From a virus (taxonomy: Duplodnaviria; Caudoviricetes), in the IMG/VR virus record IMGVR_UViG_3300044514_000023, positions 1-42,738 of that record: 42,738 bases of DNA; one strand, given 5' to 3'. The notes under the pieces were generated by a model. That model was given only the letters and a program-made list of their open reading frames with translations. It made no database searches and had not been told where the DNA came from. The translations under genes and the position numbers were made by a program. This document shows positions 1 to 42,738 of the stretch, piece after piece (position 1 is the first letter of the stretch; each line of letters opens with the position of its first letter).

Positions 1-143
1 TTCGCTTCCGAGGAGGTGGAGGTTCATACTTCGACCGAGATTCGGACCGCCAGATTCAGTTTAGGCTGCAGACTCGACATGGTGTAGGTGGGGTTGACTT
101 CGACCTCAACGATCAACCCAGCTTCTTGTCCCTTGGCGATGGC
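1..143. repeat. Terminal direct repeat, left copy (circular-assembly overlap)
   Basis: 1-143 matches 42596-42738 except T127 vs A42722; genes read through the junction. Confidence 0.97.
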
Positions 144-10336: not shown

Positions 10337-11731
10337 GTGGCCGCGAAAACACAACCGATGGAAACAGTTCAGCTCCGCACCGACGTGCTAGCCGGCATGG
10401 GCAGCCCGTACAACCCGCGTCGCATCTCGCCTCACGACCTAGCTTCGCTCCGTCGATCGCTCACGACCTTCGGCGTGGTCGAGCCCGTGGTGGTCAACCG
10501 CCGCACGGGACGCATCGTCGGGGGCCACCAGCGGGTCAAGGCCGCGGAGGCCTCGGGCATCGAGGAGCTTCCCGTCGTCTACGTGGATCTCGACGAGGCG
10601 CAGGAGAAGCAGCTCAACCTGGCGCTCAACCGGATCCACGGCGATTGGGATACCGAACTCCTGGCGAAGGTGCTGGCCGACCTGCAGGAGCGGGAGGCTG
10701 ACCTCGAACTCACGGGATTCTCAGAGACGGAGATCGCGGCGCTGATCGAGGTGCAGCGCCATGGCGACCCTGACGCGATCCCCGAGCCGCCGGACGAGCC
10801 GGCGACGAAGCCGCACGACATGATCGTCCTGGGCCGCCACCGTCTCCTCTGCGGCGACAGCGCGGACCCGATACTCCTGCAGCTCCTGCTCGGGGACGAG
10901 CGTGCCCACCTCATCCACACCGACCCTCCGTACAACGTGAAGGTCGAGCCCCGCTCGAACAACGCGATCGCCTCGGGCCTGAAAAGCACGAAGGGGAACG
11001 TCCCGTCCGAGCAGCTAGCCCGCGTGCGCAAGACCAAGCACCACCACCAAGGCCTGGACCTCGCCCGCCACCCCGAGAAGGCGAAGCCCACCGGGAAAAT
11101 GCGCGCCAGGGATCGAGAGCTGGAGAACGACTTTATCTCCGACGAGGCGTTCGCCGAGAAGCTCGTGGCGTGGTTCCAGCGAATGGCCGACGCGCTGGAG
11201 CCCGGTCGTGCGTTCTACGTCTGGGGCGACTACCGCAACATCGAGGCGTTCCCGCGCGCGTTGCGTGCCGCGGGCCTCTACTTCTCCCAGGCCATCATCT
11301 GGGTGAAGGAATGGCCGGTGCTGACCCGCAAGGACTTCATGGGCAACCACGAGTGGTGCTTCTACGGCTGGAAGGAGGGGGCGGCCCACTACTTCGCCCC
11401 GGGGGTCAATAACGCGACGGACGTGTGGTCGGTGAAGAAGGTCACTCCCCAGGCGATGGTGCACCTGACGGAGAAGCCGGTGGAGCTCGCCGAGCGCGCG
11501 ATGACCTACTCGTCGAGGAAGGGCGAGAACGTGCTCGATCTCTTCGGAGGCAGCGGCTCGACGCTGATCGCGGCCGAGCGGATGGGCCGGAGGGCGTTCC
11601 TGATGGAGATCGATCCGGCCTACTGCGACGTCATCGTTACCCGCTGGGAGAACTTCACCGGAAGAAAGGCCGAGGGCTGGAGGGGGAACGAAGCAGCCGA
11701 CCTTTGCCTCCACGCGCCGTCAAGGACTTAA
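10337..11731 (+). CDS. ParB-like domain + N6A/N4C DNA methyltransferase
   Basis: YNPR...FGVVEPVVVN...GGHQR (ParB-N); TDPPYN; H.TEKP; DLFGGSGST; EIDPAY. Confidence 0.93.
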   Translation: MAAKTQPMETVQLRTDVLAGMGSPYNPRRISPHDLASLRRSLTTFGVVEPVVVNRRTGRIVGGHQRVKAAEASGIEELPVVYVDLDEAQEKQLNLALNRIHGDWDTELLAKVLADLQEREADLELTGFSETEIAALIEVQRHGDPDAIPEPPDEPATKPHDMIVLGRHRLLCGDSADPILLQLLLGDERAHLIHTDPPYNVKVEPRSNNAIASGLKSTKGNVPSEQLARVRKTKHHHQGLDLARHPEKAKPTGKMRARDRELENDFISDEAFAEKLVAWFQRMADALEPGRAFYVWGDYRNIEAFPRALRAAGLYFSQAIIWVKEWPVLTRKDFMGNHEWCFYGWKEGAAHYFAPGVNNATDVWSVKKVTPQAMVHLTEKPVELAERAMTYSSRKGENVLDLFGGSGSTLIAAERMGRRAFLMEIDPAYCDVIVTRWENFTGRKAEGWRGNEAADLCLHAPSRT

Positions 11732-21212: not shown

Positions 21213-22133
21213 ATGCTGCCGATCATCGACATCGTGACGAATGGCGACCTAGAGGACGGCGTGGCTCCGTTCGAGCTGGAAGGCTCGGCTGTCTACACGA
21301 ACGCGAAGGCGTACGACGGTTCCTTCTCGGTGGAGCTGATCCGCTCCGCCGGACTTGGTCTGCCGGCCATCCGCTACGAGAACCTGACGCCGCTCGTGGC
21401 CGGCTGGGAGGCGACGCTCGGTTTCGCCGCGCACGACGGGGACGCGGTCCAGCCGCTGGTCGTTCAGATCGACTTCGGAGACGGCTCCCTCGTCAACTAT
21501 CACTCGGTGACCAAAGTCGGGTCGAGCTGGAGGCTGTTCTCCATCCCGTTCACGCCGATAGCCCCAGTCTGCCGGTTCAGGCTGCTCACTACCGGACCGA
21601 ACCTGAAAGGCTGGTACGTGGACGCATTCTCTTGCCTGACGCCTTCGAGGGTACTGATGGCCACTGAACTGCAGGCGCTCGAAAAGCTGAGCTTGGCGCT
21701 CCAGGAGATCAACGGCCCGCCTCAGTACAACTTCTCGCTCGGCGGCGTCCACATGGAGCACCGCCGGCCGAAGGAACGGAAGGGATGGAAGCTCCCTTAC
21801 CTATGCCTGCCACAAGCCGGCGAGGTTACGGCGCCGAAGATTTTCGAGCGCGGTCTCGTGGAACTCACTCTGAAGCAATCCATCGTCGGATACGTAGAGG
21901 ACACGGTCCTACAGGGCCACGACAGTCAACTCGTCATGATCGCCACGCTTCTCCGTCAAGACATCTGGAACGCTCTGCTGGGAGACCTGCGTCTAGGTGG
22001 CGCGGTCCACGATCTCAAAGTCGCGAGCGTCCGCAGCGAAGCAGGGACCGACCCGGAGCAACGGCACGCGGAGGTCTGGTTCGTGCTGGACCTGAACATC
22101 GCGTTTCAGCGGAGCGACCTGCCTCCGCAGTAG
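21213..22133 (+). CDS. Carbohydrate-binding-like domain fused to probable tail terminator
   Basis: NGDLEDG...AYDGSFS...W..FSIPFT...WYVDAF (CBM4/9-like), then a terminator-sized domain from M at 21657. Confidence 0.55.
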   Translation: MLPIIDIVTNGDLEDGVAPFELEGSAVYTNAKAYDGSFSVELIRSAGLGLPAIRYENLTPLVAGWEATLGFAAHDGDAVQPLVVQIDFGDGSLVNYHSVTKVGSSWRLFSIPFTPIAPVCRFRLLTTGPNLKGWYVDAFSCLTPSRVLMATELQALEKLSLALQEINGPPQYNFSLGGVHMEHRRPKERKGWKLPYLCLPQAGEVTAPKIFERGLVELTLKQSIVGYVEDTVLQGHDSQLVMIATLLRQDIWNALLGDLRLGGAVHDLKVASVRSEAGTDPEQRHAEVWFVLDLNIAFQRSDLPPQ

Positions 22134-26600: not shown

Positions 26601-27002
26601 GTCGTGCGTGGCGGTGAATCCGCGCCAGGGACCAGGCCTACTCGACAGGAACCGGAAACACCGGAGCGACGGCGCCAGACCGTACCGCTCAGGCTCACAC
26701 GTGGCGGCTTCGATGAACCAGAGAGTGACGAGCTGGCTCGGCGCACGGGCCGTCGCTGGGCCGACGACTTGCTACGCGAGGTCGGGCGCGGAATGTTCGC
26801 TAGGTTGCAGGAGACGCGCCTACAGCCGCCCTCTAACGCCATCACGAACGACAACCGAAGTAGCACAAGCAACGCGTTCGACCAGCGTGAGGAGTTCCAC
26901 TTCCACGGCCTGACGGTGCTTGGCAAGCGCTCGGAGTTCCGTCGGGCCGTCCGTGAGATCCAGCGTGAGTCAGTCCGAGACCAACCGAGGAGGATGAGGT
27001 AA
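23682..27002 (+). CDS. Tape measure protein
   Basis: 1106 aa, A/E/R-rich helical, hydrophobic segments, KAIAIALALINTYEAVTKA. Confidence 0.9.
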   Translation: MAEELTIRAAIEILMKGDGGARASAALKRIEEEAKKAGVEVGALGAKAGGAAKGVDQVGQAGEKTGQALGTASEEAQRLGQALRGATEEDRRQAAQQLAESFGRLGEELKRTGEGAQGLQLADRFTRQLAESGGPIQQQLVPAVTRFLGITRELPGSLAAVKLSVDLSKEANVSFADAARGVAAVLKGDVRVAAEALGVALRNQNGQLRQEAEILAELRGKYGDLASRAQGARAEVDRFSRATTEATRTQGRMAESLKTLGRQLLGFFGLFQALRFGREAVREFAAIERGFNAIRIVMRNLGLDAEKELPKVEDRLRAIQDAGDGLLRETIPVFQKFIGITRDTDAALAATGLAANIAESGFVDVGTAAQALALVIQGQGVRALSSLGIQLRGVNAETATNAEIVEALFAQYGNLADSLKDTTDAIDRQAAAWSNLKELVGSALAPAVTVTSGALSALIKGFQGLGAIIGTDIGVIIAAFENLGSVLAATFDFRKLFVEGPAKYRAELTRVLAEAAADVSAALEGGLSELDSIYRKRGQVSATAEAEARKTLEDIARRKAAEEDAKEAAKLAEQRKDFERDLAADLAAIRAEGAQTGTRERLDAELSALEIERTARLEEAKKLHADLAKVNEAFDAERVRRLDDFNRTRAERAREAEIAVLEAQIATAEEGSQRRLDLELELLDREYDAKIAAAEAAEEDITALQLAHALARADKAAIFAEAGAQAEIDSLRSLGEARADAEAADLELRIASAKIAHEQTLGLDRELIQLEADERKRAILAEEEDDIARVEHKRDLAIEQIEIAKQIGIANLRASLASDEQIAEASAEFESQKVELREETDKQITRVHERTSARLQAVTSRTNKAIIELEKATAEARKQQFIQSANTILGALTTLFPKSKAIAIALALINTYEAVTKAFAQGGIFGLITGAIMLAAGLKQVANIQKTNIGTSSGGASVGGQAQAPASSAVPAAVVRGGESAPGTRPTRQEPETPERRRQTVPLRLTRGGFDEPESDELARRTGRRWADDLLREVGRGMFARLQETRLQPPSNAITNDNRSSTSNAFDQREEFHFHGLTVLGKRSEFRRAVREIQRESVRDQPRRMR

Positions 27003-27388
27003 TGGCTGTCCAATCTCTAGCCCTGCAAGCGAGCGCAACGCAGACCGCGACCGGGAACGGCGCCTGGTTCGCGGCCAACACCGCGACTATGCTCTCGCTG
27101 CTCGCGGACATCACGGCTGGCGTGGCGATCACCGACTTCGACCTCTGGCTCGAGGGGACGAACGACAAGAGCCAGGCCGCCGGCTACCCAATCCAGGCCG
27201 ATCAGGTCTGCGGTCCCGGCAGGACCGCATCGACGAACAACCGGATAGAGGTGGTGCTAAACAAGAGCACGACCACGGCCGAGAAGTTCTCCGCGCTGTT
27301 CAAACACCTACCGTGGGCCTTCGTCCGGGTCGCCTGGGCGTTGACCGGTACGTCCGTGACCTTCTCGGCCACCGCGACCGTGAAGTGA
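27002..27388 (+). CDS. Small beta-sandwich virion protein
   Basis: T/A-rich, FVRVAWALTGTSVTFS; GAGGT RBS. Confidence 0.6.
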   Translation: MAVQSLALQASATQTATGNGAWFAANTATMLSLLADITAGVAITDFDLWLEGTNDKSQAAGYPIQADQVCGPGRTASTNNRIEVVLNKSTTTAEKFSALFKHLPWAFVRVAWALTGTSVTFSATATVK

Positions 27389-27391
27389 GCG

Positions 27392-29506
27392 ATGCTCCAG
27401 GAGATTCAGGTCGTTCTGACAGCTCCTGACGGTTCCGAGCTGGACCTGACGGAGCGGCTTTCGTCCATAGACGATCTCTCGCAGGCCATCGAGGAGGACC
27501 TGCTTGAGTTCGTACACGACGACATCTCGCTCGAGCTGGACGACCGGGACGGTGATCTGGAGGCTCTGCTGGCGAACGCGACTGCGGACGACATCTACGA
27601 GATGAGGATCTGGCGGACGCTAGAGAGGCGGCGCGCCAAACGGCAGCTACTCTTCGCTGGCATGCTGGATCTGCCATGGTCGCTCAGCTACGACCGCAAG
27701 GAGCGAACGGCCTCGATCCAACTGTTTGCCTACTCGAAGCTGTTGGAGAAGGCGTCGGCGGAGAATGTCAAAAGGGACATAGGAGCTCAGACCGGGAGCG
27801 TAACCGGAGGAACGAAGGTCGTCACGTTATCCAGCAGCGGTCAACTCGTTGTGGGCGACGAGATCAGGCTCACAGGCCCCACGGCCGAAGAGAGTCAGGA
27901 GATCGCTACGGTAGACAGCTCTACTCAGGTGACGACGGTCGAGAATTGGACCAACACGATCACTAGCGGAGAGCTGACCCTGATAACTCCATATTACCGC
28001 AACCGGACGGTCGAGGCTCTGGCCGCCGATCTGTTTACAGAAGCAGGCATCTCGGATTATCAGATCCAGGAAGATGCCATCTCGGCCTACCCCGTAGCAA
28101 CCGAGATAAACAAGACTGGACTGCCGGTCGGGAATCCCCTAAGCATCGTGGACCAGGTCGGAGCCATCACGGCCACATTTCCTCCGGCCGTTACGACCAA
28201 GCGCAAGACCTCGATAGATCCACAGGGCGAGTGGTCCGACGGCGCCACTTCAAACGCGACTCAGGGAGACTGGAGGCCCTATCTGCTCACCGAGCCTGCC
28301 AGCATCCTAGCTTTCGGAACCGGCGTCTATCCTGACGACGGTGGATTCGGTACCGGCTTCGCTTGGGATCACGCCGGCTCCCACCGATACCAGATGGTCC
28401 TTGACCTCGGAACGTTCCCCGATACGCGGCTCAGCCTGGAGAAGGACGGTGCGACCATCGCGAGCCTTACTGCTCAGGGTCCATCCATCAAGCACGGGAA
28501 GTGCGAGTATGAGCCGACCCAGGATGAGGTGTGGATCGCTTGGGACGACGGAGGCGTCAACCAATCCTCTCAAGTCCGTACGTCGGCTGGTGTCCTAATC
28601 TCTACGCTCTCGCAGTTTCAAGGCGGGGCCTTCCGTTGTATGCGCGATCTCGGGGTGATCCTCCACCATTCCGGAACAACCCTTTCGGTCATAGACCCAG
28701 CCACACGGGCGACGGTGAAGAGCGTGACGACACCGGCCGATGTTCGCATCTGGACCGCTCGCTACCTCAACGGTTTCGTGCTTGCGATGTACACCGAACG
28801 CGGCAAAACTAGGATGATCGTCTGGGATTCCGTGTGGACCCAATTGACAACCTACGAGCTATCTGACCAGACCTGGCGCCTTTTGCAAACGGTGTTCGAG
28901 GTGGCCGATGGTAGGCTCGTGTTGGTTGGGTATGCCGGAGACCGGTGGTTTGTTGCCTCAACCGAGTTTGCCGGCGTGATCCCATATGCCGACTTCCATG
29001 GCAAGAGCTGCTCGGCTGCCCTCAGAGATCTCGCTCTCGCTTCTCTGTCGGTCGTGACCGTTGACCACTTTCGAGTCGGCTACTTCCTGTCCAGACAGAC
29101 GCAGCTATCACAAGGCCCCGGGCCGTTCGAGCTGGATACGCCTCTCTCTCGTGAGACGCGGCAGCTCAGCGAGCAATTCCGAACCTCCGTGAAGGTGACT
29201 GGCAAGACCGAGCAAGGCGAGGACATCGAGATCATCGGCGGCGACACCGGGGAATCGCAGCGTCGGCTCGAGCTGGACAGCGATCTTATCACCACCTCGT
29301 CGCTCGCGCAGGCGGTGGCTGAAGCCTACTCGGCATTCCTGTCGAGGATACGACGGGAGGAACAGGTAACAATCCAGGAGGACGGTGAGTTGCTAGCTCC
29401 GCTCCGGTGGGTCGTGCTGGACGGCATCGAGTACCAGGTGATGGAGGCCGAGACCGACGTTCTGGAGAGAGTTCAGGACCTACGTCTCATCGAGGTCGTG
29501 ACGTGA
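27392..29506 (+). CDS. Tail tip/hub protein with inserted beta-rich domains
   Basis: 704 aa after TMP; N- and C-terminal hub-like segments. Confidence 0.6.
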   Translation: MLQEIQVVLTAPDGSELDLTERLSSIDDLSQAIEEDLLEFVHDDISLELDDRDGDLEALLANATADDIYEMRIWRTLERRRAKRQLLFAGMLDLPWSLSYDRKERTASIQLFAYSKLLEKASAENVKRDIGAQTGSVTGGTKVVTLSSSGQLVVGDEIRLTGPTAEESQEIATVDSSTQVTTVENWTNTITSGELTLITPYYRNRTVEALAADLFTEAGISDYQIQEDAISAYPVATEINKTGLPVGNPLSIVDQVGAITATFPPAVTTKRKTSIDPQGEWSDGATSNATQGDWRPYLLTEPASILAFGTGVYPDDGGFGTGFAWDHAGSHRYQMVLDLGTFPDTRLSLEKDGATIASLTAQGPSIKHGKCEYEPTQDEVWIAWDDGGVNQSSQVRTSAGVLISTLSQFQGGAFRCMRDLGVILHHSGTTLSVIDPATRATVKSVTTPADVRIWTARYLNGFVLAMYTERGKTRMIVWDSVWTQLTTYELSDQTWRLLQTVFEVADGRLVLVGYAGDRWFVASTEFAGVIPYADFHGKSCSAALRDLALASLSVVTVDHFRVGYFLSRQTQLSQGPGPFELDTPLSRETRQLSEQFRTSVKVTGKTEQGEDIEIIGGDTGESQRRLELDSDLITTSSLAQAVAEAYSAFLSRIRREEQVTIQEDGELLAPLRWVVLDGIEYQVMEAETDVLERVQDLRLIEVVT

Positions 29507-30132
29507 GCGACGGGTACTCCAGGTACGCGCTCCTCCGGGAGACTCCGCTGAACGGAGCGGAGGTCATCGTAGACCTGATGACTGCCCTCACGGACCTAGG
29601 CGGCCCCGAGAGGATGCGCGAGTCGCACGAGCTGATCCAGTCGAGGACCGAGGACGTGAACAGGCGTCGGAGGACTCGGCGGGACGGCCTTCGCTACCAG
29701 GTGGACATGGCCATCTCAATCACCACCATGAACGATCAGGCAACCGTCGCGGACATCGTGAACAAGTGGGAGGACCGCGGGGAAGAGTGGTCTTTCGAGC
29801 TGTCTATGGACGGCGGCATCAACTACATCCCGGTAGGTCTCTTGAACTACACCGGCCCTGTTCCGATACGCGACAAGACGGTGATCGGCGCGGACTACCG
29901 GATGGTTTGGGAGAGCCTGGACCTGCTCTATGAAGTTCCGTTCATCACCGCGTCCGCCGCTCCGGCCATCAGCTCGCCGGTGCTCCCCAGGGTGTACGAG
30001 TTCCCGACGAACCCATCTCCAGGACAGGTAGCGCGGATCAAGCTGCTCAACCAGCCCGAGCAGATTGCTTGGTGGATCTCCGACGCAGCAGACGTGTTTG
30101 GCTGGGTGGTGGTGGCTACCGGAGGGACTTAG
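29503..30132 (+). CDS. Distal tail-like protein with C-terminal fibre-anchor-like segment
   Basis: GTGA-coupled; ends FPTNPSPGQ...WVVVATGGT. Confidence 0.55.
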   Translation: MSDGYSRYALLRETPLNGAEVIVDLMTALTDLGGPERMRESHELIQSRTEDVNRRRRTRRDGLRYQVDMAISITTMNDQATVADIVNKWEDRGEEWSFELSMDGGINYIPVGLLNYTGPVPIRDKTVIGADYRMVWESLDLLYEVPFITASAAPAISSPVLPRVYEFPTNPSPGQVARIKLLNQPEQIAWWISDAADVFGWVVVATGGT

Positions 30133-30133
30133 G

Positions 30134-33100
30134 ATGCGCAGACTTGCCGCTCTTATCCTGGCCGTGTTTTCGTGGAGGAGCGTACAAGCCCAGACGGTGA
30201 TCCCGCGCCCCGTCACGTCTACCGGGTCGGCGCCGACCGGGGGCTGCCAGGGACTCCTCGGTCAGTCGAAGAAGGTCACGGTCGGCGTCGACCTCGGCAA
30301 GACCTTTTGCTGTGTGGACCAGGGCGGAGGCGTTCTCCAGTGGCAGCAATGCGATGTTGGCGGCGGTGCTGGCAATCCGGCCGGCTCGAACACGCAGCTC
30401 CAGTTCAATCAGGGCGGTGTTTTCGGCGGTGCCGTTGAGGCCACATACAACACGAGTACACAGCGGACGACAGTGCGTTCCCTCGTGACCGAAGATCATC
30501 CGAGCTTCGATGTGCTGTCTTTTGGCGCGCTGTGCGACGGCACCGGCGACGATCAGCCGGAGATCCAGGCGGCGGCGGACGCGGCGGCGGCCGTGGGCGG
30601 AGGTACTGTGCTGCTGCCCTCGTCACGCGTCATCGGCACGAACAACCAATGCATGGTCGGAAACGAGATCAGCCTGGGTACCAGAGTCGTACTCCGTGGC
30701 GCGGCCAAGGGAGGAGGTGGTCTTACGACCGGCGGCGGCGCTCGGCTCCGTGCGACCGGCGGCTTCCCTTGGGATGGCACTAAGGCGATGGTCAAGCTCG
30801 CGGGCGGAGAAGGTACGCGCGCCGAGAACATGTCGCTCGCCTGCGTGGATGGCGCGAACAGCATCGGTGTGAGGAGCGTCGATTCCGAAGAGAACGGCGG
30901 GCTCCGGGACGTTAACGTCACCGACTGCGTCAAGTACGGAGTCTGGGTGGACAACAGCGACGGCGTGAGTCCCTTCTCGCGCAACCATTCCTACGAGCGC
31001 GTGTCTATCCTCATGTCCGACAGCTCGGACTCCACATCCACGGGGTTCCGCGTGGACGGCGGCACGTCCGGGAACATTCCGGCCGGCCGCTTCCTCTCCG
31101 ACATCACGATCCACGGCTCCACGGCTGGCGGTGCGGTCGGGACGTGCCTGTCCCTGGACAACGTGGAGGGTATCGCGGCCAAGAATCTACACGTCGAGTT
31201 CTGCACGACCGGAGTAAAGATAGGAGCTACCGGGATGGTCCGAGGATTCGATCTGTCAGGGCTCACGGCGGCCGGCGGCTCTTCGATCACCGACCTGGTG
31301 CAGATCAGCAGCGCGACCTCCAGCACGAACATCAACCTGTCGGCGATCAAGTGCGACTCCACGGTCTGCACGAACCTGGTTAACGACCAGGTTGGCGGCA
31401 AGACCATTGCGACCTCGGCTCAGGAGACGCTGGCTACCTACGTTCTGGGCGATCCGGATACCGTGGGGATCAACCGAACGCTCGGCCGCGTCGAGGGCGT
31501 GCTCGACTCAGGGGCTCACGGGAGTCCCGCCGTCGCTACGCGGAACAACGGCGACACCACGGCCGACAGGCGAAGCGACATCGGTTTCATGCACGAAGGG
31601 AACGTGAACGCCAGGATCACGTCCACTCGGGACAGCGGAACCTCTTCGGGTGGCGATCTGTCCCTGGATACGGCCGATACCAGTGGCGCGCTCACCGCAC
31701 GGGTGCGAGTCACGAAAGACGGCAGCGTTAGAATCGTCTCTCCGAGCATGTTGGGCGTTAACGTAGCTCCGACCGTGCCATTTCAGGTAGCCGGCACGAC
31801 CAAGCTTGATGTGCCTACCGGCTGCCTCCAATCCACCTCTGGCGTGATCTCCAGCACCGGCGTGTCCTGCGGCTCCGGCACGGGCGACGTGAGCGGCCCC
31901 GCCTCTGCGGTGGACAACCAGGTCGTGCGCTTCGACGGCACGACCGGGAAGATGATCCAGGCTGGGACAAATGCTCCTAGCTACGACGATGCTGGTGCTG
32001 TCACCGTGTGGGATCAGCTCGCATTCGGGGACACGACCGAGGGCTACGAGATCCGCTGGCCGACACGCGACGGCCCAGGCACGGTGGACCCGCCGGCTAC
32101 TCGGTGGAGCTTCGATACCAACTTTTCCGATGTGTCGGTCAGGACATGCAACGGAGGCTCGCGCGCGGGCTCTCCGTGCGGGTCGGACTCCCACTGTCCG
32201 GCAAGCGCGTGTTCCGCTAGCCCAAACGGAACCTACCGGGACCATCTGATGAGCTGGGGGTACAACCAGGCCCAGGGAGCCAGAATCGACACGACCGAGC
32301 ATTCGTTCGCGCAGGCGATGGAGGCGACGTTTTGGAACGGGAGCACCGCCGAGCTGTTCGAGGTGAATTGGGATTTTACCTCCTCCTCCGGGTCCTCGTT
32401 CCGTCCGTTCGCGTTCGCTATCAACACCGGTTTCGACGGTGCAAGCACTGGCACGGCGGCGTGGGAATTCATCACCCATCCGGGCGCGGCCACCGTGCGA
32501 ATCGATGACGACAGCACGAGCGGCGGCGGCAACGGCGCTACCGTCTCGATCAACCAGGGTGCGGAGTCTCCGTTCGGCACGCTCCAGGTGTACCAGATCG
32601 CGGACGACGCGGCGGTGCCGGCTCAGCGCTCCGCCATCTACGGAAAGTTCTCTGAGCGCCATACCGTCACGACCGTCAACCCCAACACCTTCCTTGGTCT
32701 CCGTTTCGACGCCGATTGTTCGAGTACGACCGCGTCAGCCGATTGCGGGAGCGTGACCGCGTCAGAGCTGAACGCCTCCTGGACCGGCGCCGGCAACACG
32801 AAGGTGCTCGGAAACCTGCATGGGCTCGACGTGAACGTCGATCTGAACCCAACCGGTACCGGCAACACATTCACCGGTGCTGGCGGGATCGACGTGGACG
32901 TGAACTACTCGACGACCGCGGCCAACTTGGACCCGGCGGATGCGAGCGTGACGGGCTACGGGATCCTCGTCGAATCTCCGGCCGGCGATCTGTCAGCAAC
33001 TCGCTACCACTATGGGGAGAAAATCCAGGACCAGCGCGGCATGGGCTCGGACGGTAACGCGGCGCTGCTCATTGACCCTCAGAGCGGAGGCTCCGGTGAA

Positions 33101-33565
33101 GGCAACCTCCACTTTGGCGGCGGCAACTTCTCCAACGGCCACATTACGTTTTACGACGGCTGGGTCCACCTGTGGGCGGAGGCCGGGGCGGACCCTCCTA
33201 TCCTGCGGATCAACGACGGGCTGGCGAATCCTCCTGATTCCGAGCCTGACGGCCCGTCGCTAGTGGTGGCGATGAGCGAGACCGCCAATGTCAGGACGGA
33301 GATCCGGGCCGGCAACGTCTCGATGGACCCGCCGAACATCGACCCCACTGTTGCCAACACCGGGACCGCTACAGCGACGGTGACTGGACTGGCCGCTAAC
33401 GACGTCTGCGAATGCGTCCCGCGCACGGACTTCCACGACGACCTTGGGCTCAAGGGCTGCTTCGGCACGGCCAACACGCTGAACCTGCGGCTCCTCAACA
33501 TCAACACCGTGACGGCCATCGACGCGGCGGCGCAGACCGTTGATTACTCGTGCGTTCGGAAGTAG
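30134..33565 (+). CDS. Tail fibre/tailspike (pectate-lyase-like beta-helix) with N-terminal signal peptide
   Basis: GGAGG RBS; MRRLAALILAVFSWRSVQA|Q; FGA.CDG..DD...IQAA.D...GGGTV.LP; fibre motifs PAGSNTQLQFN and GDVSGPASAVDNQVVRFDGTTGK; 24 Cys. Confidence 0.8.
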   Translation: MRRLAALILAVFSWRSVQAQTVIPRPVTSTGSAPTGGCQGLLGQSKKVTVGVDLGKTFCCVDQGGGVLQWQQCDVGGGAGNPAGSNTQLQFNQGGVFGGAVEATYNTSTQRTTVRSLVTEDHPSFDVLSFGALCDGTGDDQPEIQAAADAAAAVGGGTVLLPSSRVIGTNNQCMVGNEISLGTRVVLRGAAKGGGGLTTGGGARLRATGGFPWDGTKAMVKLAGGEGTRAENMSLACVDGANSIGVRSVDSEENGGLRDVNVTDCVKYGVWVDNSDGVSPFSRNHSYERVSILMSDSSDSTSTGFRVDGGTSGNIPAGRFLSDITIHGSTAGGAVGTCLSLDNVEGIAAKNLHVEFCTTGVKIGATGMVRGFDLSGLTAAGGSSITDLVQISSATSSTNINLSAIKCDSTVCTNLVNDQVGGKTIATSAQETLATYVLGDPDTVGINRTLGRVEGVLDSGAHGSPAVATRNNGDTTADRRSDIGFMHEGNVNARITSTRDSGTSSGGDLSLDTADTSGALTARVRVTKDGSVRIVSPSMLGVNVAPTVPFQVAGTTKLDVPTGCLQSTSGVISSTGVSCGSGTGDVSGPASAVDNQVVRFDGTTGKMIQAGTNAPSYDDAGAVTVWDQLAFGDTTEGYEIRWPTRDGPGTVDPPATRWSFDTNFSDVSVRTCNGGSRAGSPCGSDSHCPASACSASPNGTYRDHLMSWGYNQAQGARIDTTEHSFAQAMEATFWNGSTAELFEVNWDFTSSSGSSFRPFAFAINTGFDGASTGTAAWEFITHPGAATVRIDDDSTSGGGNGATVSINQGAESPFGTLQVYQIADDAAVPAQRSAIYGKFSERHTVTTVNPNTFLGLRFDADCSSTTASADCGSVTASELNASWTGAGNTKVLGNLHGLDVNVDLNPTGTGNTFTGAGGIDVDVNYSTTAANLDPADASVTGYGILVESPAGDLSATRYHYGEKIQDQRGMGSDGNAALLIDPQSGGSGEGNLHFGGGNFSNGHITFYDGWVHLWAEAGADPPILRINDGLANPPDSEPDGPSLVVAMSETANVRTEIRAGNVSMDPPNIDPTVANTGTATATVTGLAANDVCECVPRTDFHDDLGLKGCFGTANTLNLRLLNINTVTAIDAAAQTVDYSCVRK

Positions 33566-33569
33566 AGAG

Positions 33570-33905
33570 ATGTACGAATACCGCGCCTGGGTCGTCAGCG
33601 TCCACGACGGCGATACCGTCACGGTGGACCTGGACCTCGGCTGTCACGTCTGGCTCAAGGGCGAGCGCATCCGGCTACTCGGGATCAACGCACCGGAAAT
33701 CACTGGCGAGACCAAGTACTCCGGTCTCGCCTCGCGCGATGCGTTGGCGGCGGTCGTGCTGGGAAAGATGGTCGAGCTGGAGACCGTCCGTGACAAGCGC
33801 GAGAAGTACGGCCGCTACCTTGGCATCCTGCGAGCCGAGATTGACGGGCAGGTCCGATCTGTGAATGATTGGCTGGTCGAGCAGGGCCACGCGGCCCGCT
33901 CGTAG
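33570..33905 (+). CDS. Thermonuclease (SNase-like)
   Basis: VHDGDT, IRLLGINAPE, KYGRYLG, VN..LV..GHA. Confidence 0.92.
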   Translation: MYEYRAWVVSVHDGDTVTVDLDLGCHVWLKGERIRLLGINAPEITGETKYSGLASRDALAAVVLGKMVELETVRDKREKYGRYLGILRAEIDGQVRSVNDWLVEQGHAARS

Positions 33906-33915
33906 GAGGTGCCTC

Positions 33916-34290
33916 ATGAACGCTCGAAGCAAGGTTCGGCTGGCCTGGATTCTCGGGTTGCTGTTTCTCGTTGGCGCGGTGTGGATCTTCTGTCAGGCTG
34001 GGTCCGATGAATCCCTCACTGTGGACATGAGGATTCCGACAGACGCCGCTAAGCTCGTGGTCCTGCAAGTAGCATTCAGGGACGTGCGTCCAGGCTCTGT
34101 GTGCCCAGACGGCGCGAAAGTGTCTCTAGTCTGGCAAGACGATAGGATAGTGACTGAGATCACTGGCTGTCCAGGGGTGAACGAGGCGGATAGTATTGAT
34201 GCGGCGGCCGAGCAGTTCTTCGAATACTTGAGGAGCCAGACCGAAGAGTGGGTACGGCAGACTATTTGCGAAGAGGAGGTCAAACCATGA
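33916..34290 (+). CDS. Exported/membrane-anchored hypothetical protein
   Basis: AGGAGGT RBS; basic N-region followed by LAWILGLLFLVGAVWIF. Confidence 0.7.
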   Translation: MNARSKVRLAWILGLLFLVGAVWIFCQAGSDESLTVDMRIPTDAAKLVVLQVAFRDVRPGSVCPDGAKVSLVWQDDRIVTEITGCPGVNEADSIDAAAEQFFEYLRSQTEEWVRQTICEEEVKP

Positions 34291-35378
34291 GGCGACTTCT
34301 CCCGATTTTCCTCCTCTCCTGTCTCGCTGAGGCCGGCGAGATCCCGCTCCAGTGGAGCCGGGTGACTGTACCCTCTGGAGTCGTGTTGCTCGGGTACGAG
34401 GTCTACCGGGGCTCTCAGCCAGGAGTCTACGGTCCTCCGACCTTCGTCAGGCTCTGCTCGGGAGCGATCGGCGAGATCCCGGCAACGAACTGCATCGTTG
34501 CTGCGGCGCCGCGGTACAACGTGGACGTGGCGGACTGCCTGGGCCACTTCGTAGCCGTCAAGACCCGGGGGCTCAACTGCGTGACCACGGGGGCGACCTG
34601 CTCGAGCTCGAGCTTCTCGAACGAACTCGCGGACCAGTGGCCCTCGGTGACTGTGAGCTCCGTGACCCCCGATCGCTGGCCAGCCGGGCAGAGCACTGGC
34701 GCCCGCGTCATCGGCTCGAACTTCCGTACTCCGATGACGGTTGCGGAGACCTCGACGGACGTGACGCTCTCTGGGCTCCAGGTGGTCTCCTGCTCCGAGC
34801 TGATGTACTCCGCCGCGGTCGCGTCTGTCTTCACGGCCGGCCTCGTCCCCATCGAGTATCGCAACGCGGACGGCAGCTCCGTGGTCCGTGGCGTCGAGCT
34901 GTTCTCGGGCGGCGTGGTCCTGCCGGCGCCTACGGATCTCGGCAGGGTGGACGTGAGGCCGGGGGAGCCGACGGGGCCCACGGAGGTCGTCGTCAATGAC
35001 GGCGATCCTGGGACGAGCAAGACCGGCACATGGAGCGCAACGACGCCGGGCACCGTCAGCCCTGGAGCCTGGCAGGGGGATTGGGAGTTTTCGAGCGCGA
35101 CGGGCGCGACGTACACGTTCAGCGCTGGTCCGCTCTCTGGAACCTATGAGGTTTTCGAACAGCACGAGGCGAGGTCAAGCAGGGCCGCTGCGGTCATGGT
35201 GTTGGTAGCAGACGGTCCTGAAGTTCTCTCGACTCCGACTGTGAATCATCAAATCAACGGGGGTCGCTGGAACAGTCTTGGAACGTTTGCGTTCACTGGC
35301 GAGGCTAGGGTTGGATTATCACGCCTGAGCACCTCCGGCTCCGTCTGCGCCGACGCCATCCGCTTCGTGAGACAGTAA
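34287..35378 (+). CDS. Secreted FN3/Ig-like + C-terminal CBM (golvesin/xanthan-lyase-C-like) protein
   Basis: MRRLLPIFLLSCLAEA|G; W...GYEVYRG...VAV...SNE (FN3); GTYEVF, NGGRWNSLGTF.F, ADAIRF. Confidence 0.75.
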   Translation: MRRLLPIFLLSCLAEAGEIPLQWSRVTVPSGVVLLGYEVYRGSQPGVYGPPTFVRLCSGAIGEIPATNCIVAAAPRYNVDVADCLGHFVAVKTRGLNCVTTGATCSSSSFSNELADQWPSVTVSSVTPDRWPAGQSTGARVIGSNFRTPMTVAETSTDVTLSGLQVVSCSELMYSAAVASVFTAGLVPIEYRNADGSSVVRGVELFSGGVVLPAPTDLGRVDVRPGEPTGPTEVVVNDGDPGTSKTGTWSATTPGTVSPGAWQGDWEFSSATGATYTFSAGPLSGTYEVFEQHEARSSRAAAVMVLVADGPEVLSTPTVNHQINGGRWNSLGTFAFTGEARVGLSRLSTSGSVCADAIRFVRQ

Positions 35379-35422: not shown

Positions 35423-35767
35423 GTGAAAACAGGCACCGCAAAACCCCGTACCACGATACCGGACCCCGGCGAGCCGGCGCCGGGGCCGCAGCTCGCCCGA
35501 GAGCGCTTCCTCGAGTTCGTCGCATTTTGTGAACGTGAACGGCGATTCAACGAGAGTCTGTTAGACACGGGGCGGAGGCTCATGGTGACGCTGGCCTATG
35601 CGGAGTGCGGCAAGCAGAGACTAGTAGCCAGGATACTTCGACTGAGTACAAGGATGGTCAACTATCATCTCGAGCAGGCTGGTGTACTGAGGCCGACGGA
35701 CCGTGGTGAGCGCAAGAGAATCGCGTACAATCCGCGCAAGAAGCTGCGGATAGCGAGGTCGGCGTGA
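35423..35767 (+). CDS. HTH DNA-binding protein
   Basis: QRLVARILRLSTRMVNYHL; start codon uncertain. Confidence 0.6.
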   Translation: MKTGTAKPRTTIPDPGEPAPGPQLARERFLEFVAFCERERRFNESLLDTGRRLMVTLAYAECGKQRLVARILRLSTRMVNYHLEQAGVLRPTDRGERKRIAYNPRKKLRIARSA

Positions 35768-36219
35768 CTCATCCTCTCCTCGGACGAGCCGTCAAGTCCG
35801 AGCGCGAGCTGACGCCGGTTCGCTCGGGTGGCTTTACCGGTAAGGTCGGCAGCTTCGGGCCCACGAGGGTCCACGCCGACGGTTCACCGAAGATGCACAA
35901 GGGTGTGGACCTGCTCTGTCCCGAGAGATGGCCGGTGTTCGCGGCGCACGGCGGGACGGTCGAGCGTGCCGGCTGGGAGCATCAGGTCTATCACACGCAA
36001 GGGTACGGGATGCGCGTCCGGCTCGTGGGTAAAGAGGCGGTCACGGTGTACGCTCATCTTTCCGAGTTATTCGTCGTGCAGGACCAGGTCGTGGCCGAGG
36101 GGGACGTGATCGGCCGCGCTGGTAGAACAGGCAACATCGAACCGTCAACGCCGACGCACCTGCACTTCGAGCTGCATCTCGCTGGCGGCCCTGTGGATCC
36201 TGAGGCGAATCTAGTCTAG
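35764..36219 (+). CDS. M23 peptidase, probable endolysin
   Basis: HKGVD, YAHL, GRTGN, HLHFE, VDP. Confidence 0.92.
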   Translation: MTHPLLGRAVKSERELTPVRSGGFTGKVGSFGPTRVHADGSPKMHKGVDLLCPERWPVFAAHGGTVERAGWEHQVYHTQGYGMRVRLVGKEAVTVYAHLSELFVVQDQVVAEGDVIGRAGRTGNIEPSTPTHLHFELHLAGGPVDPEANLV

Positions 36220-37256: not shown

Positions 37257-37502
37257 GTGAAACACCTCATTCTCGTCTTTCTCCTCCTTCTCCTCCCTGC
37301 CTGCACGGACACCGACATCATCGTCTCGAACGAATGCGAGCGCGTGAAGCTAGCGTGCCAGCAATGCGAGGCGCTGGAGGCGAGGACAGGGCAGCCTTGC
37401 GAGGACTGCCCGGCGATGATCGCAGAGGCGTGTCACGAGGACCAGCCCGACTGCGACCGCAGAGGCAAGGGGCATTGCAAGGAGGGGAATCCGCATGGGT
37501 AA
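37257..37502 (+). CDS. Cys-rich lipoprotein
   Basis: MKHLILVFLLLLLPA|C lipobox plus 8 more Cys. Confidence 0.75.
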   Translation: MKHLILVFLLLLLPACTDTDIIVSNECERVKLACQQCEALEARTGQPCEDCPAMIAEACHEDQPDCDRRGKGHCKEGNPHG

Positions 37503-38628: not shown

Positions 38629-38972
38629 TCCGCATGACCGCGAAGCAGTACGCCAAGCTGAAGGGAGGTGCCTCGTGCCGGGAGCGTCGTCCCATGACTA
38701 CCCTCTCCCCTACGAGCCGCGCCGCCCCGAGTGAGGCCTGGGCGGTACGTGAAAGCTCGTCCGACATCGCCCCCCTCTGCCACCGTTGCGGCCGCAAGCA
38801 CGGGAGTAAGGGCGGGCCGGCGAGCGGGCACTGGCTGACACCGGGGCGGGCCGGCGAGCTGTGGGAGTGCATGCATTGCTGGGCAGCGCGGGAGACCGTG
38901 GAGGAGACTCGCCGCCGCATCCGCGTAGAGTACGGAGAGGACGGCCTGCCGGAGAGGATGGTGCTACGTTGA
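38625..38972 (+). CDS. Zn-ribbon hypothetical protein
   Basis: CHRCG...WECMHC. Confidence 0.55.
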   Translation: MIRMTAKQYAKLKGGASCRERRPMTTLSPTSRAAPSEAWAVRESSSDIAPLCHRCGRKHGSKGGPASGHWLTPGRAGELWECMHCWAARETVEETRRRIRVEYGEDGLPERMVLR

Positions 38973-39760
38973 GCACGCGCCGTGGAGCAGGGCAAGCCGG
39001 CGACCTTGTGCTCAGCCTCTTCCCCGGTATCGGGCTGCTCGACATGGCCCTCGAGGAGGAGGGCTTCTGCGTCGTGCGCGGGCCTGATCTGCTCTGGGGC
39101 GGTGACATCCGCCGCTTCTATCCGCCGGCGGGGAAGTTCAATGGGGTGATCGGTGGGACTCCCTGCCAAGCCTTTTCCCCGTTGCGGAAGCTCGTGGAGC
39201 ATGCGCATCTTCCCGTGGCCGCTGACCTGATCCCCGAGTTTGAGCGGTGTGTCTGTGAAGCTGGCCCAGAGTGGTTCCTGATGGAGAACGTTCCGGGGGC
39301 TCCACTACCCACTGTCCCGGGTTATATCGTGAAGGATCAACTCATCCGAGACGTAGCGGTCGGCGGCGAAACCAACAGGCTCAGGCGATTTTCTTTCGGT
39401 ACCGTCACGGGATTGACGCTGTCCATCGAATGGGCCGCCCTACATCGTACCGATCCGGCGCCGACCGTCTTGGCCTCTGGTGGCTATGCCGTCGGAGTGA
39501 AACGAGGGGAGGCCGTTCGGAAGTGGCGCAAGGGAGCCTCCGCCGCAGGCTTCAAGACCAAGAGTGTGTGGGAATACTCTCGCCGCCTTCAGGGGTTGCC
39601 CAATGATTTCTTGGCTGACGCGCCCTTCACCGTGGCCGGCAAGATCAAGGCAGTCGGAAACGGCGTCCCCCTCGCCATGGGGAGGGCGGTGGCGAGGGCG
39701 GTCAAGGCGGCTCTAGCATTGGGAAGAGAGCCACGAAACAGCCTTGGGATCTTAGCGTGA
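38969..39760 (+). CDS. C5 cytosine DNA methyltransferase
   Basis: SLFPGIG (I), GGTPCQAFS (IV), ENV (VI), R.R (VIII), RLQG (IX), GNGV (X). Confidence 0.92.
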   Translation: MSTRRGAGQAGDLVLSLFPGIGLLDMALEEEGFCVVRGPDLLWGGDIRRFYPPAGKFNGVIGGTPCQAFSPLRKLVEHAHLPVAADLIPEFERCVCEAGPEWFLMENVPGAPLPTVPGYIVKDQLIRDVAVGGETNRLRRFSFGTVTGLTLSIEWAALHRTDPAPTVLASGGYAVGVKRGEAVRKWRKGASAAGFKTKSVWEYSRRLQGLPNDFLADAPFTVAGKIKAVGNGVPLAMGRAVARAVKAALALGREPRNSLGILA

Positions 39761-41801: not shown

Positions 41802-41990
41802 CTATCCCACTGCCCACAGCGCCAGCGCGCAGACCGCCGCGGCTGTCCCCGCGCCGAGCCACCAGCCAACCATCAGGGACCGAGGGTCGTACCGTCGCTC
41901 CCGGTTGATCGCGCGCAGGAACCTGTCGCCGCGGTTGTAGCACGGCCCTTCGTGCGGGCCGCCGCGTGAGCTGAGGAGGTGGAGGTTCAT
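41802..41990 (-). CDS. Small protein with C-terminal TM helix
   Basis: LMVGWWLGAGTAAAVCALALWAV; shares MNLHLL start with the ligase. Confidence 0.6.
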   Translation of the reverse strand: MNLHLLSSRGGPHEGPCYNRGDRFLRAINRERRYDPRSLMVGWWLGAGTAAAVCALALWAVG

Positions 41991-42622
41991 CAGAAATCTT
42001 TCGTCTTGATCTTCACGATCAACCTAGCGCCTTTCTTGTCAAATAGCGTTTCGGCCGGACGCCCAACCAGACCTTCCGCCATGGCCGCTCCGTTGTTCAA
42101 CAGCGACGGAAATCCGGCCTGCACCATCACCGTCGCTTCTTCGAGTGTCATCTCGCCAACGAACGGGACCACGTCAAGGCCGATCTTGGCAGCCACGTCG
42201 CATGTGTTCTCCCAGCTCAACCACCACTTGCCGTCCACTAGTACGTCGAAGACGATGAGCTTCTTTGTGAGGGAATAGTTTCCGCCCTTCTGGATTCCAG
42301 CGCCGTAGCCTTCCCCGTAAATAACGACGTTGCCTTCTGGAAAGACGTTGGACATTGTCGAGGTCGGCACGTTTTCGTACAGCCACCTCACGAGGTCTGC
42401 GTGGATCTGGGCGTTGTCAGTTTTTCCACCGAATCTGAGGATGCCGTTCTCCCAAATGCAACGGATGTTCGTTCCGTCGATTTTCTCGGTCCAGATCCAC
42501 GACTTGACGAGAGAGTACGTGCGATTCTTGAGTCGCGATGGGTCCACCTTGTGAGTTATCTCATCTCGGACGTACAGTGTTTCGATCTTGTGATATTCGC
42601 TTCCGAGGAGGTGGAGGTTCAT
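41990..42622 (-). CDS. RNA ligase (Rnl2-like nucleotidyltransferase domain)
   Basis: YHKI, TEKIDGTN (motif I), YGEGYG, FDV, EGLV, KIK. Confidence 0.9.
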   Translation of the reverse strand: MNLHLLGSEYHKIETLYVRDEITHKVDPSRLKNRTYSLVKSWIWTEKIDGTNIRCIWENGILRFGGKTDNAQIHADLVRWLYENVPTSTMSNVFPEGNVVIYGEGYGAGIQKGGNYSLTKKLIVFDVLVDGKWWLSWENTCDVAAKIGLDVVPFVGEMTLEEATVMVQAGFPSLLNNGAAMAEGLVGRPAETLFDKKGARLIVKIKTKDF

Positions 42623-42738
42623 ACTTCGACCGAGATTCGGACCGCCAGATTCAGTTTAGGCTGCAGACTCGACATGGTGTAGGTGGGGTTGACTTCGACC
42701 TCAACGATCAACCCAGCTTCTAGTCCCTTGGCGATGGC
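42596..42738. repeat. Terminal direct repeat, right copy
   Basis: Matches 1-143 with one mismatch. Confidence 0.97.

Follow-up and report, generated by a model that had tools for sequence, protein, structure and literature searches.

How does a tailed phage come to carry, at its receptor-binding position, a cysteine-rich fibre with an export signal, when the classical fibres of tailed phages are leaderless and folded in the cytoplasm? The question is raised by IMG/VR virus record IMGVR_UViG_3300044514_000023 (Caudoviricetes), which was analysed over its whole length (positions 1-42738, hereafter the window) and represents a complete 42.7-kb genome with a terminal direct repeat of 143 nt (99% identical, window 1-143 and 42596-42738). 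A preliminary description of this sequence had placed at the receptor-binding position a gene of 1143 amino acids (aa) with phage fibre motifs (30134-33565), starting with MRRLAALILAVFSWRSVQA before Q after a GGAGG ribosome-binding site and encoding 24 Cys against 3 in the 704-aa hub. All of these points were confirmed in the sequence, the fibre-shaft motifs by phmmer, and the predicted leader proved to be conserved in relatives, so that the window fibre departs from the leaderless textbook fibre. Judging from sequence, we consider Sec export and cleavage of the fibre highly probable and disulfide bonds within it nearly as probable; export with oxidative folding outside the cytoplasm is very likely. 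The best single explanation of the gene, to which sequence and predicted structures lend slightly better than an even chance, is a tail fibre that would dock on virions at lysis.

The fibre gene begins 1 nt past the stop codon of the previous gene, with GGAGG 8 nt upstream, and its in-frame alternative starts (aa 11, 22, and 61) all lack a Shine-Dalgarno (SD) motif. Its product reads, in order, as a leader (aa 1-19), a four-Cys knob (aa 38-73), a shaft motif, a beta-helix, a shaft repeat, a C-terminal half, and a Cys-containing tip. The mature protein has no membrane-spanning segment (maximum 19-residue hydropathy, 1.19), no Cys at +1, and no barrel family in Pfam, and Pfam likewise gave no hit to an S74 chaperone in it. 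Phmmer gave 895 hits, and of the best 150 the majority fall on aa ~575-630 or ~40-120, with some spanning aa 122-445. The beta-helix start of the preliminary description was upheld, with weak matches (PF12708, E 2.4e-5, under the Pfam cut-off; AlgE epimerases, PDB 5lw3/2pyg, E 3e-6 to 5e-6). A single-sequence AlphaFold monomer of the full fibre gave no usable model (pLDDT 35). The fibre, its parts, and the genes directly upstream are as follows.

27392..29506, + strand: tail hub/tip protein of 704 aa, leaderless, 3 Cys, after the tape measure gene; the marker used for collecting relatives.
29503..30132, + strand: protein of 209 aa one gene after the hub (hub+1), leaderless, 0 Cys, directly preceding the fibre gene.
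About 29950-30132, + strand: C-terminal extension of hub+1 (~60 aa) that may serve the exported fibre as a docking knob in the cytoplasm; homologues mostly lack it and measure ~150 aa.
30121..30125, + strand: Shine-Dalgarno motif GGAGG of the fibre gene, seen in the sequence.
30134..33565, + strand: leader-bearing, Cys-rich tail fibre/tailspike-like protein (24 Cys, 1143 aa); the genome has no other fibre-like gene.
30134..30190, + strand: predicted Sec/SPI signal peptide, aa 1-19 (V-Q-A, cleaved before Q), called heuristically; this slot has a leader in 15/16 loci.
30245..30352, + strand: N-terminal four-Cys knob (C38, C59, C60, C73), invariant in the window, L016, L045, and P0132.
30497..31468, + strand: pectate-lyase-like right-handed beta-helix, aa ~122-445, a putative glycan-binding or depolymerase head (PF12708, PDB 5lw3/2pyg, phmmer).
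31856..32023, + strand: fibre-shaft repeat, aa ~575-630, common to many mostly leaderless, Cys-poor proteins.
32210..33283, + strand: C-terminal half common to secreted chromosomal proteins of the host class (8/119 class genomes, in non-phage neighbourhoods).
33299..33562, + strand: tip domain, aa ~1056-1143, with conserved Cys in a seven-row alignment.

Related phages were gathered with a hub profile, which yielded 24 loci (6 viral and 18 metagenomic) with hub homologues 30-40% identical. Signal peptides were called by a heuristic of our own, not SignalP, with false positives in 94 of 3000 internal windows (3%). A leader was present on the gene two after the hub (hub+2) in 15 of 16 readable loci, versus none of 12 hubs and none of 17 hub+1 genes. 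This count is exclusive of duplicates (L024, L037, and L017) and of loci ending before the slot, and it includes near copies (L028 and L030) as well as close relatives (L031, L032, and L034); the exception, L023, has a second hub+1-like gene in the slot, cut by the contig end. The leader is thus conserved by position while leader sequences diverge, and among 14 fibres no conserved SD-led internal start was found after it. Leader conservation in homologues and a true start had both been named beforehand as tests, and these results favour the predicted signal peptide on both counts. Single-protein scans of viral contigs with the fibre or hub gave no match, profile scans being required, and the 55-aa members placed in the fibre's cluster were rejected as unrelated to it.

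Cysteine content follows the leader. The window fibre has 21 Cys per 1000 aa versus 4.8 in 13 other late or structural proteins of the window (24 Cys in 5046 aa; Fisher P = 5e-7), and the major capsid protein has none. The best 150 phmmer hits comprise 30 leader-positive proteins, whose median is 16.7 Cys per 1000 aa, and 120 leader-negative ones, whose median is 3.3; some calls in both groups are visibly wrong or were made on fragments. In the family of an N-terminal anchor domain described below, the corresponding medians are 19.9 (15 leader-bearing) and 3.4 (5 leaderless; P = 6e-5, rows not independent). By alignment position, Cys fills 84 of 192 cells in leader-bearing rows versus 26 of 847 in leaderless ones, figures that are indicative only, since the alignments are loose and the groups were assigned by hand. 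All four rows available for the knob (window, L016, L045, and P0132) keep its four Cys. In the tip, four Cys are invariant in seven rows, and two others, kept in the remaining six rows, are Ala and Ser in the window fibre, a joint loss that would be expected of a disulfide pair. As a separate observation, the fibre of P0005 and P0017, encoded on phage-sized 44-kb contigs, has a leader and an SGNH esterase head but just 4 Cys, which represents a leader without Cys enrichment.

The relatives also point to a host. Locus L017, identical to L047 and found with the anchor alignment, sits in a 161-kb contig of a metagenome-assembled genome (MAG) of Ca. Polarisedimenticolia (Acidobacteriota), a class in which 3 of 119 genomes have the hub. 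Since relatives are prophages there, the window phage presumably infects Ca. Polarisedimenticolia. DSBA-family genes are present in 118 of 119 genomes of the class and VKOR in 42 of 119 (tallies including the unpublished genomes G070 and G040, on which nothing else here depends). Sec export with oxidative folding is strongly supported because leaders are kept by position while their sequences diverge, because Cys enrichment tracks the leader, and because genomes of the host class encode DsbA-like proteins and VKOR. Locus L046, on a 45-kb contig of a Nannocystaceae MAG, belongs to a different phage that carries a similar fibre, and tblastn with the fibre and the anchor matched no cultured phage.

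Several findings pull the other way and have to be set against export with oxidative folding. The preliminary description had the Cys falling into local pairs or quartets; clustering is only borderline in the window fibre (P = 0.058) and ranges from P = 0.001 to 0.11 in six relatives. Even Cys parity, considered as evidence, was dropped, as it holds in 11 of the 18 fibres with a leader, a share no higher than expected by chance. Neither DsbB nor VKOR was found in the incomplete MAG G004 by the searches run, and four loci have a full leader only if a GTA codon after a strong SD motif is taken as the start. The last point would suit a reading in which the N-terminus does not function in export, or in which the virion fibre is a leaderless cytoplasmic product of an internal start, with Cys oxidation delayed until after lysis as in the disulfide-rich virions of Agrobacterium phages Milano and 7-7-1; disulfide networks do exist in tailed virions (PMC12796354). 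This reading does not explain why unrelated leader sequences recur at one gene position (15/16) and never on the hub or hub+1. It is also opposed by the lack of a conserved SD-led internal start and by the Cys-poor core structural proteins (4.8 per 1000 aa), and we consider it very improbable, the last of the four explanations weighed here.

GTA starts were seen in their own right in ten or more genes of prophage L017/L047, among them those for the protease, capsid, tape measure, hub, hub+1, and fibre, at L047 2503, 3610, 5208, 7123, 9421, 9896, 15356, and 15647 and at L017 1182 and 2511. The fibre genes of three close relatives also open at GTA (L031 12665, L032 12648, and L034 4233). These starts mostly lie 6-8 nt after an SD-like motif, the base before them is nearly always T, and homologues have ATG or GTG. 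Judged from phage genes alone, GTA initiation is probably routine in one phage or host lineage.

Where would an exported fibre go? In most relatives, the fibre starts, right after the leader, with an anchor domain of ~110 aa. Its hits divide by eye into 11 of 16 with a leader and 5 of 16 without, the latter fronting Cys-poor fibres, and leaderless stand-alone anchor genes occur in the tail regions of L042 and L045. The anchor model (pLDDT 85-95 over aa 1-100) is a transthyretin-like beta-sandwich. Compared with 48,161 chains, it most closely matches components of virions, namely, the neck fibre of cyanophage A-1(L) (Z 9.1, rmsd 2.5, 93 aligned) and Ur-lambda tail-tip chain Ta (Z 8.2, rmsd 2.6, 89 aligned), followed at lower scores by the XM1 neck, Bxb1 tail tip, and DEV collar. 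At E<=1e-3, a BFVD search with the anchor returned 25 hits, some of them minor tail proteins or tail-fibre proteins, and Foldseek found no PDB match at this threshold. The DEV collar domain is the N-terminal barrel joining fibre gp53 to the virion (PMC11445570), and fibres are added last in T4 assembly (PMC3185693).

Gene context also speaks for the virion. The fibre gene is coupled to tail-tip genes in all loci, with gaps of -10 to +10 nt; promoter and terminator sites around it are at chance level in a scan for the sigma-70 consensus only, and GC content is unchanged. Moreover, the only fibre-like gene in the window and in the complete relative G126 is the leader-bearing one. Attachment to virions at or after lysis, as advanced in the preliminary description, has indirect support only, from gene position and coupling, from the lack of a leaderless fibre in the window or G126, and from the predicted docking-type fold in relatives, and it loses from the absence of the long fibre in two other relatives, G124 and G125.

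We propose that the fibre would be made in late infection and exported via Sec to the host periplasm, where it would fold with disulfide bonds and presumably form trimers. Lysis would then mix the compartments, and the fibre could dock on finished virions as an accessory glycan-binding appendage. Two docking modes can be envisaged. In most relatives, the exported fibre would use its own transthyretin-like beta-sandwich, as on virion necks and tail tips; in the window, L016, and L045, the C-terminal knob of a leaderless upstream protein would take the fibre's four-Cys knob. The second mode draws on the Cys-free C-terminal extension of hub+1 in the window and L016, a similar one being present in the L045 anchor gene and in L042. 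Locus L045, with a different hub, encodes a leaderless anchor gene with extension and then a leader-bearing fibre with the same four-Cys knob. The architectures form a series: a fused leaderless anchor and head (P0042); a split anchor-knob and head, both leaderless (L042); an anchor-knob followed by a leader-knob-fibre (L045); a hub+1-knob followed by a leader-knob-fibre (window and L016); and a leader-anchor-fibre (others). That the adaptor knob receives the four-Cys knob is a tentative suggestion, which we would sooner doubt than accept. As to the broader picture, we see the chances as evenly balanced that tailed-phage assembly would here involve a second compartment, with a cytoplasmic particle and Sec-exported, disulfide-folded periplasmic fibres meeting only at lysis via a docking interface cut differently in evolution (a whole anchor behind the leader, or an adaptor knob plus a four-Cys knob).

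Docking on virions has its own counterweights. The anchor-type fold is widespread in cell-surface proteins as well (pilin, CnaB, and SusC N-terminal domains, Z 5.6-7), and the top Z of 8-9 is modestly above these. The window fibre itself, like those of L016 and L045, has no anchor domain and carries the four-Cys knob in its place. HHalign of the adaptor knob against the fibre knob gave a probability of 0.2%, which is not significant, so their likeness is by eye only; and because the window and L016 are sister lineages in the hub+1 tree, the split layout amounts to about two independent cases. Two relatives rated 100% complete, G124 and G125, gave no anchor match and no fibre-like open reading frame (ORF) in 40,000/42,375 and 39,271/39,271 bases, respectively; their slot holds only short leader-bearing Cys-rich proteins, and their hubs are longer. 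Finally, the C-terminal half of the fibre matches proteins in 8 of 119 host-class genomes. Since G124 and G125 do without it, the long fibre is dispensable in the clade, and it is probably an accessory appendage rather than the sole receptor-binding protein.

In other loci, too, the long fibre is replaced or followed by short proteins with a leader and 4-13 Cys that look Fn3-like by eye (L015 12612-13046, L020 12646-13209, L027 3577-4584, L041 13069-13560, and L028 17819-18136); the four of these five that were scanned had no Pfam or PHROG hits. Extensions resembling carbohydrate-binding modules, again by eye, occur on the leaderless tail-terminator protein of the window (21213-22133), on the L015, L020, and L027 hubs, and on the L019 hub+1 protein, and these may take on host recognition, as modules folded in the cytoplasm, in phages without the long fibre.

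The missing anchor domain of the window fibre would also fit a protein exported late and released free at lysis, which, as a soluble depolymerase or a decoy without stable virion binding, would remove capsule or compete for receptors. Its late-operon position beside lysis genes and the beta-helix and SGNH-like heads in the fibre family are compatible with this, yet the long shafts and the docking-type N-terminal domain of most relatives would be superfluous in such a protein, and the leaderless stand-alone anchor gene before the fibre in L045 likewise speaks against it. We regard free release as rather improbable, ranking it third.

More weight attaches to the shared C-terminal half. Eight host-class neighbourhoods were read, and several of them show leader-bearing proteins encoded chromosomally among housekeeping genes. 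The host, then, already exports such fibres, which fits a role on the host surface and equally domain capture by the phage. The modification of the host surface that the preliminary description held as its alternative thereby gains real support while still ranking below virion attachment. On this account, the exported, disulfide-folded fibre would stay on the host as a prophage adhesin or receptor mask (lysogenic conversion), and it accords with the proviral nature of the relatives, with chromosomal leader-bearing proteins of the class sharing both C-terminal half and tip, with neighbours such as the 34287 product that resemble ordinary secreted surface proteins, and with the absence of the fibre from two complete relatives. 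Lysogenic-conversion morons of the lom/bor type have their own promoter and terminator, atypical base composition, and a membrane anchor. The fibre gene is coupled to tail-tip genes in all loci and shows neither a promoter or terminator excess (sigma-70 scan only) nor a GC shift, and the mature fibre has no membrane anchor. The anchor domain, found in only 2 of 119 host-class genomes, once inside the L047 prophage and once on a phage-like contig, is not a general host module, and a comparable leader-bearing Cys-rich fibre exists in the cultured phage Bcep781. Bdellovibrio MAT fibres do show that bacteria export phage-like trimeric fibres (PMC10769870). Display on the host surface is, in our view, unlikely but the second-ranked explanation, after virion attachment at lysis. 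As a side observation, many secreted host proteins (L071, L072, L073, and L076) share a short, similar C-terminal ending whose last residues are Cys-Pro; this may be a sorting or anchoring signal of the host class that has yet to be described.

Docking of an exported fibre can be compared with known systems. The DEV gp53 barrel (PDB 9COD), the A-1(L) neck fibre (8KEG), and Ur-lambda 9E7M_Ta, which we take to be the Stf N-terminus, dock through an N-terminal beta-sandwich, and the relatives' fibres share with them the predicted fold, the late tail-operon position, and shaft repeats plus a head. The DEV, A-1(L), and Ur-lambda docking fibres are cytoplasmic proteins not known to have leaders, whereas the fibres studied here have a Sec-type leader before the domain and an approximately six-fold higher Cys content, and the window fibre has the four-Cys knob instead. 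Filamentous phage pIII is a Sec-exported, disulfide-bonded receptor-binding protein, but it is membrane-anchored and assembled during extrusion without lysis, and its phage is not tailed. Another counterpart is gp49 of the virulent, cultured tailed Burkholderia phage Bcep781 (NP_705672.2), annotated in GenBank as 'possible tail fiber; possible signal peptide domain'. Like the window fibre, it has a leader, a mature N-terminal Gln, and a beta-helix-like head; it has 14 mature Cys, tail type and host differ, and no BLASTP similarity at E<0.01 links it to 11 fibres of the window family. A literature search of titles and abstract starts turned up no paper testing its export or virion presence.

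The MAT fibres of Bdellovibrio bacteriovorus resemble the present ones in their signal peptide, conserved beta-rich N-terminal domain (~130 aa in the MAT fibres), mosaic phage-like fibre, and variable tips; they differ as bacterial chromosomal adhesins of the predator surface, of which 13 of 21 end in an S74 chaperone (PMC10769870), whereas the fibre genes here lie in phage tail operons. Secreted fibre-tipped proteins of Ca. Polarisedimenticolia (L072, L073, and L077; P0085, P0093, and P0178) likewise have a leader, Cys pairs, and a homologous C-terminal half or tip, but they are chromosomal, lie among housekeeping genes, carry other N-terminal domains, and are uncharacterised. Milano and 7-7-1 have disulfides in tailed-phage structural proteins, as proposed here; their capsid proteins and whole proteome are Cys-rich, and the searched portions of text contain neither 'signal peptide' nor 'periplasm' (PMC10811340 and PMC12796354), whereas in the window only the leader-bearing proteins are Cys-rich. 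Phage A1002 gp41, with 30 N-terminal residues missing in cryo-electron microscopy (PMC13730344), was rejected as a precedent because the KPP25 protein of the same length and position has no leader. The main text of the Tunturi virus paper contains neither 'signal peptide' nor 'tail fiber', and a full-text literature search, at abstract level and mostly without subscription papers and supplements, found no description of Sec-exported fibres in tailed phages.

Tailed phages, to our knowledge, are considered to build all of their virion parts in the cytoplasm. If virion attachment holds, the fibre would work like a tail fibre without textbook cytoplasmic biogenesis, by a new assembly route. Assembly would then include a step so far undescribed, and infectivity would depend on Sec and Dsb function of the host. 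Phages could in that case take disulfide-dependent adhesin heads from host secreted proteins, the C-terminal half shared here marking a route of domain exchange, and cytoplasmic expression of receptor-binding proteins of this kind would yield misfolded products. In annotation, fibre leaders may be cut off or misinterpreted. The same signature in a cultured phage, Bcep781 gp49, makes the question testable now.

In most loci, more genes with leaders lie 3' of the fibre (9 of 10 later genes tested). In the window, the genes 3' of the fibre are arranged as follows.

33570..33905, + strand: SNase-like nuclease gene within the exported block (PF00565, E 1.2e-7), leaderless by the heuristic.
33916..34290, + strand: singleton of 124 aa with a hydrophobic N-terminus (signal peptide or membrane anchor by the heuristic) and 4 Cys.
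34287..35378, + strand: leader-bearing protein of 363 aa with a Golvesin-C domain (PF25275, E 5.7e-16) and 7 mature Cys; a homologue with leader is present in L016.
35764..36219, + strand: M23 peptidase (PF01551, E 8.7e-23), a probable endolysin, opening the lysis region.

The preliminary description had credited both neighbours, 33916 and 34287, with export signals. The 34287 product has a clear leader, with cleavage after aa 16, while the N-terminus of the 33916 product could be an uncleaved anchor; the block of exported genes at 30134..35378 is interrupted by the leaderless SNase-like gene. The N-terminal part of the 34287 product appears Fn3- and IPT/TIG-like, a lead only, with ESM Atlas neighbours all <0.9. 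In the lysis region, window 37257-37502 encodes a probable lipoprotein of 81 aa with Cys16 after a hydrophobic leader and 8 further Cys, possibly an outer spanin or exclusion protein.

Elsewhere, the window encodes a terminase, a Mu-type portal, a gpT-like capsid protein, and a 1106-aa tape measure in addition to the hub and M23 peptidase. No sheath gene was noticed among its genes, which is why we describe the phage as siphovirus-like. No integrase was found among the scanned window ORFs, though the relatives are proviruses. A family of ~130 aa, its likeness judged by eye, recurs at widely differing late-operon positions (window 27002-27388, L016 5090-5488, L017 726-1172, L022 2404-2805, and L056 1626-2021), which suggests a decoration protein. 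The window further encodes an RNA ligase (41990-42622, - strand), a ParB-fused N6/N4 DNA methylase (10337-11731), and a C5 methylase (38861-39760).

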